This document shows, piece after piece, positions 4,316 to 22,447 of a stretch of 32,000 nt of DNA (positions within the stretch are counted from its first letter, which is position 1; the number at the start of each line of letters is the position of its first letter). A model generated the notes under the pieces. That model was not told where the DNA came from and made no database searches. It saw only the letters and a list, made by a program, of their open reading frames with translations. Source of the DNA: Lacticaseibacillus parakribbianus (lineage in GTDB: Bacteria > Bacillota > Bacilli > Lactobacillales > Lactobacillaceae). Where the stretch lies: positions 147,536 to 179,535 of the forward strand of contig NZ_JANQBA010000004.1 in the NCBI RefSeq assembly GCF_025490915.1. Reading direction: 5' to 3'. The position numbers were made by a program, and so were the translations under genes.

Positions 4316-5152
4316 TTAACCCACTCCCCCGCCTTCGCGGTGGCCGCGGCGGTAAGCTCGCGGCGACCGCCGGTAGACGCGCTTGAACTGGGTGGAAAAA
4401 TACAGCGGATCCGGGTAGCCACACGCCGCGGCCACCGCCTGAACCGGCATCGTGGTCGTCTCCAGCAGCTGGGTGGCCCGAGCCAGCCGCAGCCGCTGCA
4501 GGTACTGCTGCGGCGATACGTGCAAGGCGGCCTTGAACTGCTTGGTCAAGTAGCCGCGGCTGACGTTGACCCGCTCGGCCAGCCCCGCCACAGTGAGGGG
4601 CTCTTGGTAGTGCGTGTGCAAAAAGGCCAAGGTGTCGTCGATACGCTGCTGCTGAAGTGCCGGCACCGGCGGCTGGGGCGGTAGCGCCACCGCCGCACTC
4701 AGCACGTCCAAAAACGTTGTCAGCGCCGCCAGCCGCGCCAGCTCCCGGCCGTTGTCCGGGCGACACGCCGCCGCAACCGCCGTCAAGGCCCGGCCGCACT
4801 GCTCGGCCTTTGCCTCGGGCAAGGCGGCAAGCGCCGCCTGCGTCAGCGTTGCAAAATGCTCATCCACCAGACTCCCGGCGGCCGCCACCCACGCGTAGGT
4901 CCAAGGCGTCGCCGCGTCCGGTCCGTAGTCGACCAGCTGCCCCCGCTTGAAGAAGAACCACTCCCCGGCGTGGTAAGCTCGCCGCTTCCCATCGATGGTG
5001 ACGGCACCGCTGCCGCTCAGCACGTGATGAAACACGTAGGCCTGCCCCGCCTGGTAGCGGTAGTGATCAAGAACCGTGCAGGGCTGATACCCGCACTCCG
5101 TCAAGTTGAGCTCGGCGCGAGTCGCCTGAGCCCGGTACCAGAAGTATTCCAT
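4316..5152 (-). CDS. AraC/XylS-family transcriptional regulator
   Basis: 278 aa with an N-terminal cupin-like sugar-binding region and a C-terminal double HTH (LTVAGLAERVNVSRGYLTKQFK...ACGYPDPLYFSTQFKRVYRRSPRAYRR). RBS GGGGGAGG lies upstream of the ATG. Confidence 0.9.
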   Translation of the reverse strand: MEYFWYRAQATRAELNLTECGYQPCTVLDHYRYQAGQAYVFHHVLSGSGAVTIDGKRRAYHAGEWFFFKRGQLVDYGPDAATPWTYAWVAAAGSLVDEHFATLTQAALAALPEAKAEQCGRALTAVAAACRPDNGRELARLAALTTFLDVLSAAVALPPQPPVPALQQQRIDDTLAFLHTHYQEPLTVAGLAERVNVSRGYLTKQFKAALHVSPQQYLQRLRLARATQLLETTTMPVQAVAAACGYPDPLYFSTQFKRVYRRSPRAYRRGHREGGGVG

Positions 5153-15068: not shown

Positions 15069-15113
15069 GTTGGACCCTCCGAATTCGTAACTCTAACCAG
15101 TTTAGCAACCCAA

Positions 15114-15152
15114 TGTAAAAATCCCACCCGGCAATTGTAAAAATCATGTAAA
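15114..15152 (-). promoter_or_regulatory. Pho-box-like TTTACA direct repeats upstream of pstS
   Basis: Minus-strand TTTACA at 15152..15147, 15141..15136 and 15119..15114, with periods of 11 and 22 bp. The last copy sits 17 nt upstream of a possible -10 (TTAGAGT). This matches the B. subtilis PhoP half-site TT(A/T/C)ACA and its helical phasing. Confidence 0.55.
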
Positions 15153-15340
15153 ATCATTCGGCTTCAGTATACGCCGCCGGTGCCGGTGGCGATACCACGA
15201 GTTGCGCCGGCGGCCGCCGTCACCCGAGGACCACCGAGCCACACCTGGCAGCGCCGGCGAGGACCAACCGTGGCCCGCATTGCCAACCCGCGGCTGTACC
15301 CGATGCGGTGGCGCGGATCGCCGCGGTCGGCGGTGCTAGC

Positions 15341-17687: not shown

Positions 17688-18827
17688 CTAGTCTGCGTCA
17701 GGCGTGGGGTTGGGGTCGAAGGTGACCATGCCCAGCTCGTGCGGGGCGCCGGCAAAAATCGCGGTCTCCGCCAGCTTGATGCGGCCGTCCAGCCGTTGCA
17801 CCTTCAGCCGGCAATACGTCGGATGCGCCTGCAAGGCGGCGTAAAGCTCGGCCGCCGTGGTGACCGGCACCTGATTGGCCAGCAGCACGATGTCGCCGGC
17901 CTCAAGCCCCATTTTGGCCGCCGGCGTGTCGGGCAAAACGGCGACCAGCCGCACCCCGCTGGCCGTGGCCGAGATGTAGGCTGCCCCGCGTCGTGCCGCC
18001 ACGCGCGTTGCCACGGCCAGGCCAAGCGCCAGCACCGCCAAGGCAATCTGCACCCCCAGGCCCAGGTCCTGGTGCCACCAGCCGATGCCGGCCGCAAGCG
18101 CCGCCGCCACCCCACCGATCAGGTAGACCCGGCTGATCGAATCAAGCGCGGTACCGGGCAGCTGCTTGCGAGTGGTCAAGGCCGCCCCAATCACCAGCGG
18201 CAGCCCGATCAAGGCGAAGCGCTGATCCAAAACGGTCAGCTGCGGCCAGTACGGCAGCCGGTTGAACCAGTCGCCGCTCACCGGCAGCACCAACGGCACC
18301 CAGTAGAACTGGCGCCTGGCGTAAGTCGCGACCTGCACCCCACGCCGCGAGCCGCGAACGCTGGGGACGTCGATTGGCGGGTTCAAGAAACGCAAAAGCA
18401 GCCCGTTGCCCAGCCACAGCAGTGCGATAAGCGCCGCCAGCCGCCAGCTCCAGCCGGTACCGCCAGCGTGGAGGGCCGCCACGTTCAGGTAACGCGTCGA
18501 GGCGACCACCACCAGGCCGGCCAGCCCCAGCGACCAGGTGCCAAAGCCCAGCCCGGACAGCAAAAGTCCGGCCACGCACAGCCCAGAAAGCGCCAGTCCC
18601 ACCGCCGGCGGCAGCAAGAGCCCCAGCAAGACGCTGGCGCCGCTGACCACCAGGGCCAGCGCCACGCCGCCGATCAGCCCGGCCCACCAGTTGGTCCAGT
18701 GCCGATCGATGGCCGTCAGGAACACGGCCCGTTCGTGACGCACCCGCCACAACCGCCAAAATAGTGCCACGGCCAGGCCGACCAGCGTGACCGGCCCCAC
18801 CATCGTTATCAGAATCTGCATCGGCAT
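17688..18827 (-). CDS. polytopic membrane protein with C-terminal PDZ domain (MinJ-like position and architecture)
   Basis: 379 aa with multiple TM segments, then the PDZ-like region VLPDTPAAKMGLEAGDIVLLANQVPV. It sits next to ftsEX, as minJ does in Bacillus. It is followed 9 nt later by phoP, so it is probably co-transcribed. Confidence 0.75.
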   Translation of the reverse strand: MPMQILITMVGPVTLVGLAVALFWRLWRVRHERAVFLTAIDRHWTNWWAGLIGGVALALVVSGASVLLGLLLPPAVGLALSGLCVAGLLLSGLGFGTWSLGLAGLVVVASTRYLNVAALHAGGTGWSWRLAALIALLWLGNGLLLRFLNPPIDVPSVRGSRRGVQVATYARRQFYWVPLVLPVSGDWFNRLPYWPQLTVLDQRFALIGLPLVIGAALTTRKQLPGTALDSISRVYLIGGVAAALAAGIGWWHQDLGLGVQIALAVLALGLAVATRVAARRGAAYISATASGVRLVAVLPDTPAAKMGLEAGDIVLLANQVPVTTAAELYAALQAHPTYCRLKVQRLDGRIKLAETAIFAGAPHELGMVTFDPNPTPDAD

Positions 18828-18848
18828 GTACCCTTCCCTTCACAGTGT

Positions 18849-18857
18849 AGTATAGCA
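18849..18857 (-). promoter_or_regulatory. extended -10 promoter (TGCTATACT) for the PDZ-protein/phoPR operon
   Basis: Minus strand TGC-TATACT lies 21 nt upstream of ATG 18827, with AAGGGAAGGG as the RBS in between. Confidence 0.45.
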
Positions 18858-18915
18858 TGGAATACTTTACTGAAAAAATCTGGTAAATTTCTTGTAAAGG
18901 CGGGTTTACATTGAC

Positions 18916-18994
18916 CCAGGGCGAAGTCAGGCGGGGTTAGCGGGACGGCCAGCGTAGGGCTGGTGCTTGGGGCCCGGGCTTGGCCCCGAGTGCC
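18916..18994 (+). repeat. structured direct repeat, copy 1 (~79 nt)
   Basis: ccagggcgaag...ggccagcgtagggctggtgcttggggcccgggcttggccccgagtgcc. It contains the hairpins CCAGC-GTAGG-GCTGG and GGGGCC-CGGGCTT-GGCCCC. Strand assignment is arbitrary. Confidence 0.7.
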
Positions 18995-19039
18995 GGTCCT
19001 AGCAGGCCGCTCCCGCGTTGCCTGGCGTAACCCGACGAT

Positions 19040-19116
19040 CCAGGGCGAAGCGGGGCGTTTAGGCGACCGGCCAGCGTAAGGCTGGTGCTTGGGGCCCGGG
19101 CTTGGCCCCGAGTGCC
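19040..19116 (+). repeat. structured direct repeat, copy 2 (~77 nt)
   Basis: The 48-nt core 19069..19116 matches 18947..18994 with one mismatch, which falls in a hairpin loop. The 5' ccagggcgaag block is also shared. Confidence 0.7.
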
Positions 19117-19180
19117 ACGGGATTGGCGAGCCGAGCCGCGCGGCCAATTTCACGCGGCCGCCACCGCGCGAGCTTAATTG

Positions 19181-19209
19181 TTGACGGCCAAAATGGCAGG
19201 GCTTACACT
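19181..19209 (+). promoter_or_regulatory. near-consensus sigma-A promoter with no protein gene downstream
   Basis: TTGACG (19181..19186), exactly 17 nt of spacer, then TACACT (19204..19209). The predicted TSS is near 19216. Confidence 0.6.
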
Positions 19210-19215
19210 GAATTT

Positions 19216-19629
19216 GGATGATTATTCTACGACAGGGAGGCGGCCAAAGGCCTTGGTCGTTGCGCGTCCACTGCCCCAGGGGGAAAGGCCGGGAGATAAG
19301 CATTCCCAGTACCCCCGCCCATACCAAGCCGAACCTGGCTTTCAACACACGTGTTTTCGCGTTACGGCGCCCCTCGATGGGCCCGAATACCAGGGCGAGC
19401 GCCACCACCCACGCGCAGTCACACTGTCTCTCCTACTCGCTTGCGAGGTAGCTGCGGAGGGGCTCGGCACGTGGCTTGCTCCAAGCGGCCTTGAACGCAG
19501 TACCACTGCGAGGTCAACACCGCAAGATTGCAACGAATCAGCAAAAAATACCGAGGCTGCCGGGGTTCTAGGACTCCCGGTGGCTTCGGCGCGTCCGGCA
19601 CAGGTCAGAACTGGTGCCGGACGTTTTTT
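19216..19629 (+). ncRNA. candidate orphan structured ncRNA (~410 nt), family not recognised
   Basis: Bounded by the promoter above and a plus-strand intrinsic terminator. Dense local helices occur at 19279..19316 (nested), 19326..19341, 19366..19403, 19433..19451, 19474..19486, 19496..19510 and 19551..19589. ORFs in this stretch lack an SD and use rare codons. Confidence 0.5.
19593..19629 (+). terminator. intrinsic terminator, plus strand
   Basis: GTCCGGCAC - 12-nt loop - GTGCCGGAC, then G and TTTTTT (19624..19629). The U tract exists only on the plus strand. Confidence 0.8.
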
Positions 19630-19645
19630 GTCTGCCGTTGGCCGC

Positions 19646-19671
19646 AAAAAAAGACCGCCACGCAGGCGGTC
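19646..19671 (-). terminator. intrinsic terminator after ftsX
   Basis: Minus strand: GACCGCC-TGCGT-GGCGGTC followed by TTTTTTT, 15 nt after the ftsX stop. It is convergent with the plus-strand terminator at 19593..19629. Confidence 0.85.
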
Positions 19672-19686
19672 CAAAGAGCTCAACAA

Positions 19687-20574
19687 TCAGATGCGCAGGA
19701 AGCGGCGCATGGAGACAACCGCACCCAACGCCCCGATCACGATGCCGATCAAGGCGATGCCCAGATCCAGCCAGAATAAGAACGGCAGGGTCGGGAACAG
19801 CGAGAAGCCGTTGGCGGCTACCGAGAAGTTGGCGTTTTTGTACACCAGCCCGTAGCCAAAATCGACCACGAGCATCGGCAAAAGCGATCCGAACAGCCCG
19901 GTCCAGGCCCCTTCCAAGAGGAACGGCCAGCGAATGTAGCTGTTGGTCGCCCCGACCAGGCGCATCACGCGAATCTCGTCTTCACGCGAGAGAATCGTGA
20001 TGCGAATGGTGTTACTGATCAGGAAGACCGCGACGAACAGCAGCAGGATGGTGAAGCCGATGCCCCAGCGCTGAATCGTGTCGACGGTCGAAAACAGCTT
20101 CTTGGCGGTGTTGCCGCCGTATGACGCCTCGGAAACGTGCTTGAGCTTTTCGGCCTTCTTGGCAACGGTGATGGTCTGCGTCGGCTTCTTGGTGTCGACC
20201 AGGAAAATGTTGGTCAGCGGGTTCTGGTCGCCGGAGAACATCTTCCACTGCGAGCCGTACGTGCCGACGATCGAGTTGAGCTCCTGCTTGGAGGAGCGGA
20301 AGGTGATCTTTTCGACCTGCGGCATCGCCTTCAGCTGCTTCTTCAGCGCCGCTTGGTCGGCCTTTTTGGTGCCTTTTTGGATGTAAACCCGCACCCGCAC
20401 GTCGTTTTCGACCTGGCTGGACACGCGGTTGACGTTGGCAATCAGGGCCAGGAAAATCCCGACCAAAAGCAGCGTGACGGTCACCGCGGAAACCGCGGCC
20501 ACCGACATCCAGCCGTTGCGACGCAGGCTTTTGAGGGAGTCTTTGACGTGACGCTTCAATACATTAGGCTTCAT
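19687..20574 (-). CDS. ftsX: cell-division ABC transporter permease-like protein FtsX
   Basis: 295 aa with 4 TM and a large extracellular loop. N-terminus RHVKDSLKSLRRNGWMS, typical of FtsX. It overlaps the ftsE end by 11 nt. Confidence 0.9.
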   Translation of the reverse strand: MKPNVLKRHVKDSLKSLRRNGWMSVAAVSAVTVTLLLVGIFLALIANVNRVSSQVENDVRVRVYIQKGTKKADQAALKKQLKAMPQVEKITFRSSKQELNSIVGTYGSQWKMFSGDQNPLTNIFLVDTKKPTQTITVAKKAEKLKHVSEASYGGNTAKKLFSTVDTIQRWGIGFTILLLFVAVFLISNTIRITILSREDEIRVMRLVGATNSYIRWPFLLEGAWTGLFGSLLPMLVVDFGYGLVYKNANFSVAANGFSLFPTLPFLFWLDLGIALIGIVIGALGAVVSMRRFLRI

Positions 20575-21330: not shown

Positions 21331-22447
21331 TCACTTCGGGTTGGCGCCTGCGAGCTCCCACTGCAGGTAGGCGTAGATGAAGGGGTTGAGATCCCCGTCC
21401 ATCACGGCCTGCCCGTTGCCGGTTTCGTAGTTGGAGCGGTGGTCCTTGACCATCGTGTAGGGATGGAACACGTAGGAGCGAATCTGCGAGCCAAAGGCGA
21501 CCTCCATCTGGGTGCCCTTGATGGCCGCGGCCTCCTTGGCCTTGATCTCCTGTTCGCGCTGGTACAGCTTGGCCTTGAGCATCCCCATGGCCGTGTCCTT
21601 GTTTTGGAACTGGCTGCGCTGGGCCTGGCTGGAGACCACGATGCCGGTCGGAATGTGGATCAGCCGCACGGCACTGGAGGTCTTGTTGATGTGCTGGCCG
21701 CCGGCGCCGCTTGAGCGAAAGACCTCCATTTTGATGTCTTCGGGGCGAATCTCGATGTCGATGCTGTTATCAAGCTCCGGCATCACGTCGACGGAGGCGA
21801 AGCTGGTGTGACGCCGCCCGGCCGAGTCGAACGGCGAGATGCGGACCAGGCGGTGAACGCCTTTTTCGGAGCGCAGCATGCCATAGGCGTTGTCGCCCGA
21901 GATCAGAAGCGTCACCGACTTGATGCCGGCCTCGTCGCCGGCCAGGTAGTCGGCGACTTCCACCTGGTAGCCGTTTTGCTGGGCCCAGCGCTGGTACATG
22001 CGCAGAAGCATCGAGCCCCAGTCCTGCGACTCGGTGCCGCCAGCGCCGGGGTGAATTTCAAGAATTGCGTTGTTGGCGTCGTACGGGCCGCTGAGCAACA
22101 GCGTCAGCTCGTAGCGCGTCATCTTCTCCTGCAAGGCGGTGAGGTCGGATTCGACTTCGGCCTGCAAATCGGCGTCTTGCTCCTCTTGCAACAGCTCGAA
22201 GGCGACGTCCAGCTCGTCCAGCTGGTCTTGCAGCGCGATAAAGTTGTCGTGCTTGGTTTTGAGCACGTTGTTAGCGTCGATCACTTCTTGGGCGCGTTGG
22301 CGGTTGTCCCAAAAGCCGGGTTCGGCCATGCGGCCCTCGTTTTCGGCGATGCGTTCGTTCAGCGCATCGAGGTCAAAGCGACCCCCTAAACTGATTTATT
22401 TTGGTCCGTAACTGGGCCAGGGTGTTTCTCATTTCTGCGATTTCCAT
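21331..22447 (-). CDS. prfB: peptide chain release factor 2, requires programmed +1 frameshift
   Basis: Frame 0 is ATG 22447 [24 protein letters not shown], ending at TGA (22375..22373). The +1 frame continues [24 protein letters not shown]... through the 332-aa track ORF, with GGQ ([11 protein letters not shown]) and SPF motifs. Confidence 0.92.
22372..22387 (-). other. prfB +1 frameshift cassette
   Basis: The minus strand reads AGGGGG TCG CTT TGA C: an SD-like AGGGGG, a 3-nt spacer, then the CTT TGA C slippery/stop context. Apart from the spacer this is identical to the canonical E. coli cassette. Confidence 0.9.

Follow-up and report, generated by a model that had tools for sequence, protein, structure and literature searches.

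The locus between ftsX and a PDZ-domain protein gene raises the question of whether a long stretch without genes can carry a transcription unit of its own and, if so, what kind of RNA it would make. The window, by which we mean the whole stretch of 32,000 nucleotides that was analysed, is Lacticaseibacillus DNA with a GC content of ~60%, and the PDZ-domain protein encoded in it has the same sequence as WP_262315515.1 of L. parakribbianus (100% identity). The gene order on the minus strand is secA, prfB, ftsE, ftsX (19687-20574), the gap, the PDZ-domain gene (17688-18827), a response regulator and a histidine kinase. The original prediction placed an orphan structured transcription unit of ~410 nt on the plus strand of a gene-free gap of ~860 bp, as a candidate for an unclassified large non-coding RNA. 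The gap measures 859 bp (18828-19686) and no gene is called in it, judged by the annotation of the sister assembly, the sole annotation used.

We propose that the part of this gap from ~19117/19160 to 19645 may well be a young, lineage-restricted non-coding segment that acts as a self-contained transcription unit on the plus strand, a judgement from sequence that we hold to be evenly balanced. On one side of it lies the ftsX terminator and on the other the promoter of the PDZ-domain gene, and the region between these two signals is an insertion hot spot rich in repeats. The layout of the gap is as follows.

18849-18876, minus strand: promoter of the PDZ-domain gene, TTTTCA-16-TG-TATACT, bounding the variable part of the gap on the left.
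18913-19036, plus strand: full copy, u1, of a repeat unit of ~122 nt, which adjoins the orphan segment and is not part of it.
19037-19150, plus strand: second and direct copy of the repeat, u2, truncated at its 3' end, with the unique segment starting at ~19117-19160.
~19117/19160 to 19645: unique segment of ~480-530 nt.
19178-19855, plus strand: open reading frame (ORF) of 225 aa.
19181-19209, plus strand: sigma-70-like promoter candidate, TTGACG-17 nt-TACACT, matching 9/12 in the consensus scan.
19216-19629, plus strand: candidate non-coding transcript of ~414 nt, which would run between the promoter-like site and the terminator that bound it.
19218-19451, plus strand: ORF of 77 codons.
19269-19400, plus strand: the most highly conserved stretch of the segment, which contains the palindrome AACACACGTGTTTT and is predicted to form a multiloop with four hairpins (19272-19396).
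19365-19385, plus strand: local hairpin in which the pair G19369-C19382 is replaced by U-A in the sister genome, a compensatory change.
19551-19589, plus strand: hairpin A, a plus-strand-specific composite stem of 17 pairs.
19591-19629, plus strand: hairpin B with U6, an intrinsic terminator (stem-loop 19591-19624, T6 19624-19629).
19646-19672, minus strand: intrinsic terminator of ftsX, -17.6 kcal/mol, which closes the gap.

The segment is carried by two genomes only, that of the window (L. parakribbianus) and the distinct genome GCA_054785075.1, named 'L. suihuaensis', which we call the sister genome and whose DNA is ~94-96% identical to the window. Over the segment the identity falls to 86.5% (417/482). 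For comparison, identity is 92.2% at the third codon positions of six flanking genes, 97-99% in short spacers within operons and 84.9% in the long intergenic region 15069-15340. On average, the segment thus appears to diverge at the level of unconstrained intergenic DNA for this pair of genomes. The divergence is uneven along its length. The 5' part, 19210-19268, is the most divergent at 73% identity (about 50 nt of the candidate RNA), 19269-19400 stands at 95.5%, and 19471-19550 at 83.5%. At the edges of the gap, the promoter region of the PDZ-domain gene (18828-18912) is identical at 85/85 positions in the sister genome, and so is the ftsX terminator at 27/27.

The interval does not code for protein by any of the tests applied, as the original prediction had argued. 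Both of the ORFs that it had listed exist, no ORF of at least 10 aa has a convincing Shine-Dalgarno sequence, and the excess of GC at the second over the first codon position in the 77-codon ORF was reproduced. In all six frames GC3 lies between 0.56 and 0.68, compared with 0.80-0.91 in the real genes of the window. The codon log-likelihood, trained on the 21 genes of the window, is negative in six out of six frames and in each 150-nt window, with a best value of -0.17 against a mean of +0.59 for genes read in frame. There were no Pfam matches among seven ORFs, the 77-aa ORF included. The plus-strand ORF of 225 aa had no match among 1.84 billion protein representatives and the minus-strand ORF of 199 aa none in a collection of 5.8 billion sequences, and tblastx against 57 related loci gave no protein relative of the long ORFs. 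All long frames are open in both the window and the sister genome, which is expected at 60% GC. A conserved ORF with a synonymous pattern of substitution would look like ftsX, which is 98.6%, 100% and 92% identical to its sister copy at codon positions 1, 2 and 3. The sister genome holds no such pattern in the interval, where dN/dS is 1.00 for the 77-aa ORF and 0.8-2.8 across the other ORF frames. The 77-aa ORF has kept its length and stays open in both genomes, with 15 of its 77 residues changed and the substitutions spread evenly over the codon positions. There is a weak 3-base periodicity of GC in 19250-19490 (0.50/0.65/0.78 by coordinate phase).

A promoter-like site lies where it had been placed, with TTGACG-17-TACACT at 19181-19209 on the plus strand, and it predicts a transcription start near 19216-19217. 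As a bare consensus match it is weak: the whole window has nine matches of the 9/12 type against ~4.5 expected from shuffled sequence, and one of these nine matches falls inside ftsX. The comparison with the sister genome is more telling. Both hexamers are unchanged there (6/6 at -35 and 6/6 at -10) amid a local divergence of 27%, and the spacer has kept its length of 17 nt with 12/17 bases identical. The 3 bases directly upstream of the site differ between the genomes.

At the other end, two hairpins form a tandem 3' module. Hairpin A, predicted as a composite hairpin by eye, is real: it folds at -28.4 kcal/mol (39 nt alone) or -29.5 kcal/mol with short flanks, with z scores of -4.4 to -5.1. 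In the sister genome, two of its G-C pairs have become G-U, changes that keep the pairing in plus-strand RNA only, and its loop has a different sequence. On the plus strand hairpin A reaches -28.4 kcal/mol in the window and -26.3 in the sister genome, compared with -18.1 and -13.9 on the minus strand, so that in either genome the plus-strand form gains 10-12 kcal/mol over the minus-strand form. This points to the plus-strand RNA as the form under selection, and the preservation of hairpin A is the strongest argument that transcription of the plus strand may really reach this point. An A6 tract, which had been overlooked, precedes hairpin A, which therefore also reads as a weaker second terminator on the minus strand, behind that of ftsX.

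Hairpin B followed by T6 (19591-19629; -24 kcal/mol, z -4.8) agrees with the terminator that had been described as working on the plus strand only, since its U tract is found on that strand alone. Its stems are identical in the sister genome, its loop is changed, and a T7 follows (-23.6 kcal/mol, z -6.7). Over hairpins A and B together, the real substitutions break 1 pair compared with 5.7 in random mutants of the same spectrum (P<0.005), and the sister sequence of the 3' hairpins folds as well as that of the window. The separate ftsX terminator on the minus strand was found at 19646-19672, back-to-back with hairpin B as described; hairpin B (U6, plus strand) and the ftsX hairpin (U7, minus strand) stand tail-to-tail, 16 nt apart.

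The body of the candidate transcript behaves differently from its 3' end. The full 414 nt fold with z scores of -2.0 (plus strand) and -2.1 (minus strand), and the plus-strand value is due to the two 3' hairpins. Without them, the 330-nt body (19216-19545) folds no better than shuffled sequences (z +0.24 for the plus and -0.77 for the minus strand), which does not bear out the description of an interval packed with local helices. In the minimum free energy fold of the body, 17 pairs are broken by the real substitutions and 16.4 in random mutants. With RNAalifold, the body yields 3 compensatory pairs; random mutants yield 1.8 +/- 1.2, and 22% of them reach 3, with the sister genome as the single homologue on which this covariation rests. 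Pair preservation is no better than random in 19216-19268, and in 19401-19545 it is worse, with 12 pairs broken compared with 8.4. Of the individual helices that had been proposed, two, 19474-19486 and 19496-19510, do not survive intact in the sister genome, and the long pairing 19366-19403 is contradicted because the change G19369>U would be unpaired in it. The helices 19279-19316, 19326-19341 and 19433-19451 are invariant between the two genomes and hence uninformative.

Within the body, the core at 19269-19400 is identical to the sister genome at 126/132 positions, including a run of 82 nt free of changes. With adjacent changes counted as single events, such a run has P=0.033 and the scarcity of changes in a 132-nt window P=0.21, so that the support for a conserved core is marginal. 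Its 6 substitutions break none of the 35 predicted pairs against 2.4 expected (P ~0.02, for a region chosen post hoc). The predicted fold of the core gains no stability over shuffled sequences (z -0.97).

Searches for known families and for homologues were negative for the segment. There was no match to any family of Rfam 15 in the whole window at gathering thresholds, and with permissive filters at E<=10 the interval 19181-19629 gave only noise (E 6-8, 14-15 bits, compared with thresholds of 34-80). The corresponding loci of the sister genome and of L. kribbianus were negative in Rfam too. None of the large-RNA families OLE, GOLLD, ROOL and raiA, nor HEARO, was matched. The lack of Rfam matches, together with the negative ARAGORN search for tmRNA, bears out the view that this is not tmRNA, RNase P RNA, SRP RNA or 6S RNA. 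The view that it is not a leader or riboswitch also stands, as what follows on the plus strand is the 3' end of ftsX, a minus-strand gene, and no cis-regulatory family of Rfam was matched.

A synteny scan with FtsX gave 57 related loci, with L. kribbianus as the closest other species (FtsX 93% identical). When the gap was compared with these loci by blastn, tblastx and nhmmer, the only matches were to the PDZ promoter and to the repeat units; neither L. kribbianus nor any of the other 56 loci has the segment. The flanks align with L. kribbianus at 84-91% identity overall, with 91.5% from 19689 rightwards and 83.7% up to 18912 (83% over 18828-18912), and nothing is colinear between these points. 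Distant blastn searches of plasmids and phages gave no match to the segment, and scans of metagenome and viral contigs with back-translated peptides gave no confirmed relative. A second copy of the segment is found neither in the 32-kb window nor in ~0.5 Mb of related loci. No relative locus examined has a plus-strand gene at the position of the gap. The literature searched on the species and on hairpin repeats of Lactobacillaceae held nothing relevant, the species papers being unrelated to this question.

Across the genus the gap between ftsX and the PDZ gene ranges from 118 to 778 nt, which marks it as an insertion hot spot, and in the relatives repeats have been gained in it repeatedly. In the window, the left third of the gap (18913-19150) is filled by the two copies of the 122-nt repeat, which the original prediction had not noticed. 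A covariance model of the repeat, R1, scores u1 with 106.8 bits on the plus strand compared with 16.8 on the minus strand, so that the hairpin is strand-specific, as RNA or as single-stranded DNA; u2 scores 55.8 bits. Nine copies of the repeat align as one long hairpin of 36 pairs with 90% of the cells paired and 25 pairs changed on both sides, compared with a maximum of 12 in slid controls. None of 500 shuffles reaches its percentage of paired cells, its compensatory pairs or its covariation score, and three G-U pairs are conserved. The sister copy of u1, which was excluded from the building of R1, is 75% identical to that of the window and scores 101 bits, with 34 of 36 pairs kept, 6 of them through changes on both sides. 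The apex of u2 is deleted in the sister genome.

Further copies are found in related loci. The gap of L. kribbianus, 421 nt long, holds 2 copies of the repeat, which share the strand of ftsX, lie in the opposite orientation to those of the window and extend as far as the ftsX terminator. There are 3 tandem copies in L. mingshuiensis and a partial copy in L. jixiensis, and L. yichunensis carries the repeat too. In a Lacticaseibacillus MAG, one copy lies in the 3' UTR of secA, between the stop codon and the terminator. The repeat matches no Rfam family and is not described in the literature searched. It resembles the REPIN, ERIC and BOX-type elements, imperfect palindromes of ~120 nt that lie in intergenic regions or 3' UTRs in either orientation and often in tandem, and like them it turns over between close relatives. 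It differs from them in being strand-specific through its conserved G-U pairs and in that no associated transposase was identified, and no such family of the Lactobacillaceae is found in Rfam or in the literature searched. The element with real covariation in this gap is the 122-nt repeat, not the orphan segment.

Two other origins of the segment were considered. It has no terminal inverted repeats and, over the 32-kb window and ~0.5 Mb of related loci, no second copy, which makes a MITE less likely. Degenerate copies of the 122-nt repeat were rejected by local alignment against shuffles, TRF and the R1 model with filters off.

If the segment acts as a transcription unit, RNA polymerase would initiate at TTGACG-17-TACACT, near 19216, and make a non-coding RNA of ~414 nt from the plus strand, with transcription stopping at the tandem 3' module of hairpin A followed by hairpin B and U6. 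Because this module and the ftsX terminator face each other tail-to-tail, overlap between the two convergent transcripts would be avoided. Should the RNA be functional, its best candidate part would be 19269-19400, which might act in trans through base pairing or protein binding. We favour such a unit because the hexamers and their spacing are kept while the spacer and flanks diverge, because the U tract of hairpin B is found on the plus strand only and the 3' hairpins are preserved, and because hairpin A keeps its pairing by G-U and is more stable on the plus strand. The lack of a coding signal, an SD-led ORF, a Pfam match or a protein relative, the clean 82-nt run of the core with none of its 35 pairs broken, and the loss of alignment to L. 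kribbianus over the segment despite aligning flanks add to this preference. It is weakened by a promoter that matches at 9/12, about half of such matches being expected by chance, by a body that is neither stabler than shuffles nor structurally preserved and has compensatory pairs close to the random number, and by an overall identity no higher than that of intergenic DNA and below that of third codon positions. The conservation of the core is marginally significant with two genomes only, and the 5' 50 nt, a frequent site of sRNA seeds, diverge most. The idea of an orphan transcription unit survives from the original prediction through the promoter-like and terminator signals kept in the sister genome, and its large structured RNA does not.

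The main competing explanation, quite plausible and ranking nearly equal to a transcription unit, is that the segment is intergenic DNA without function that an insertion or recombination event left behind in the repeat-rich hot spot, where selection would act only on the hairpins beside ftsX. These would then form a bidirectional insulator, in which the ftsX terminator and, weakly, hairpin A serve ftsEX, and hairpin B keeps stray antisense transcripts out of ftsX. Chance or low divergence would then account for the promoter-like match and the conserved patch, and any RNA would be transcriptional noise. An average divergence equal to that of another long intergenic region fits this explanation well, and so do the body without excess stability or structural conservation, the weak promoter match, the marginal core, a gap that varies from 118 to 778 nt among relatives with repeated gain of repeats, and the fact that L. 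kribbianus does without the segment. It accounts less easily for hexamers kept at 12/12 with exact spacing amid 27% local divergence and for a core in which no pair is broken. It also has to explain the plus-strand-specific preservation of hairpin A, from which it follows that plus-strand RNA probably passes through it and that something upstream is transcribing.

A protein-coding past or present is much less probable. The segment might be the remnant of a decayed gene of either strand, convergent with ftsX in the plus-strand case, whose promoter and terminator outlived the coding sequence. This would suit a plus-strand promoter and terminator that enclose ~400 nt and the weak 3-base periodicity of GC in 19250-19490, yet we regard it as improbable, with no protein relative in either of the two large sequence collections, Pfam or the tblastx search of the 57 loci, a negative codon log-likelihood in every frame and window, dN/dS of ~1 and no relative with a plus-strand gene at this position. 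More improbable still is a small protein, such as one made from a leaderless mRNA for the 77-aa ORF, whose ATG (19218) lies at the predicted start, 8 nt past the -10 element. That the ORF is open and of the same length in both genomes speaks for it, but chance alone leaves frames open at 60% GC, and the neutral dN/dS of the ORF, its 15 changed residues with changes even over codon positions, its GC2 above GC1, its poor codon usage and its negative Pfam search all go against a protein. The large, intricately folded RNA of a new or known class, in the manner of OLE, GOLLD, ROOL or raiA, as originally read, is what we consider least probable. Its length of ~414 nt, its non-coding nature, its many GC helices by eye and the lack of an Rfam match had suggested it; however, without the terminator hairpins the RNA folds no better than shuffles, its body structure is unconserved with three of the proposed helices broken in the sister genome, and it is found in two genomes of ~95% identity only, with no trace of it in the next species or in the metagenome and viral collections searched. 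With so little conservation and covariation in relatives, the claim to a novel large RNA largely fails.

Intergenic regions of Staphylococcus and Listeria contain many orphan sRNAs of the Rsa and Rli type, which are intrinsically terminated and specific to species or lineages. The candidate transcription unit resembles such orphan sRNAs of Firmicutes in being a stand-alone intergenic unit with its own candidate sigma-70-like promoter and a 3' stem-loop with U tract, non-coding, of narrow phylogenetic range and with no neighbouring gene to lead. It differs from most of them in that the candidate RNA is longer (~414 nt) and its 5' end is the least conserved part. With OLE, GOLLD, ROOL, raiA and HEARO it shares a length of several hundred nt, the absence of coding, a richness in GC helices by eye and a Gram-positive host, but not the hallmarks of those families, which are excess folding energy, covariation in the body and a broad distribution, with covariation judged here from the one sister genome. 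The tail-to-tail hairpins recall the back-to-back intrinsic terminators of convergent units, although here there is no annotated convergent gene and the partner on the plus strand would be at most a non-coding RNA.

A more specific version of the proposal, which we consider doubtful, is that the segment encodes a recently born or acquired regulatory RNA of ~414 nt, with the four-hairpin core at 19272-19396 as its functional domain, and that it arose in the hot spot of the REPIN-like 122-nt repeat. If this is true, the origin of a new non-coding RNA gene would have been caught in the act between species whose flanks are 84-91% identical. The locus also shows that helices found by hand are no evidence of structure at 60% GC, and that a single sister genome of ~95% identity was sufficient to separate the conserved promoter hexamers and terminator hairpins from an unconstrained body. 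The 122-nt repeat, with its strong and strand-specific covariation and no match in Rfam, is a more promising lead than the orphan segment. If the RNA is real, it would still not be a new RNA class; it would be one more lineage-specific bacterial sRNA and a mildly useful example of the birth of non-coding genes in repeat-rich hot spots.

Immediately beside the orphan segment, a candidate non-coding plus-strand unit in the gap between ftsX and the PDZ gene, lie two copies of a hairpin repeat of about 122 nt, which is not part of the segment itself. Copies are also found in the window's relatives, including L058, a locus of the sister genome GCA_054785075.1, which is labelled 'L. suihuaensis'.

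Hairpin repeats of about 122 nt in the window and in related loci
Window 18913-19036 and 19037-19150, plus strand, two copies
L001 4932-5054 and 5057-5180, plus strand, two copies
L014 4990-5358, minus strand, hairpin repeat
L015 4992-5116, minus strand, hairpin repeat
L054 1855-1976, plus strand, hairpin repeat
L058 (sister genome) 4489-4611, minus strand, hairpin repeat

The family was seen in high-GC Lacticaseibacillus, frequently in tandem and in either orientation relative to ftsX, with one case in the 3' UTR of secA. Compensatory changes occur in 25 of the 36 pairs, a number reached by none of 500 shuffles, and the repeat is strand-specific, since its G-U pairs are conserved. It is similar in appearance to REPIN/ERIC elements, and no match for the family was found in Rfam.

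Within the orphan segment, hairpin A (19551-19589, plus strand) is followed by T6 when the minus strand is read (19541-19589), and because of this T6 it could be a second, weaker terminator behind that of ftsX. Its stability is far lower on the minus strand, with -18.1 kcal/mol in the window and -13.9 kcal/mol in the sister genome. A near-perfect palindrome, AACACACGTGTTTT (19344-19357), falls within the 82 nt of the segment that do not vary, and as DNA it might be bound by a protein.

Differences between the window and L058 are clustered as runs of four to five neighbouring replaced bases.

Window 19187-19268, 19245-19248, 19264-19267 and 19568-19571, positions with replaced-base runs relative to L058

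Examples, from window to L058, are CAAAA to TGCGG, CAAA to TCCC and GCGT to AATG, and the loop of hairpin A (CTAG to ACGT) is another. These runs lower the local identity to about 73%, although the two genomes are about 95% identical overall. Judged by this pattern, change in the region seems to be driven by multi-nucleotide replacement events rather than by point mutation. As a neutral benchmark for divergence, its sole use here, we took the intergenic region 15069-15340 upstream of the histidine-kinase gene, which has 84.9% identity to the sister locus L059 with 17 gap positions, on par with the orphan segment.

In the sister genome the prfB product is called with 371 aa. The mechanical ORF 21331..22329 in the window misses the N-terminus of this product because of a programmed frameshift.

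Window 22368-22390, minus strand, classical prfB programmed +1 frameshift site, AGGGGG TCG CTT TGA C

The FtsX protein is identical between GCA_054785075.1 (L058/L059) and the window; DNA identity to the window genome, which is L. parakribbianus-like, is only about 94-96%. As this lies near the species boundary, the names 'L. suihuaensis' and L. parakribbianus may denote either a single species or two sister species that are very closely related.
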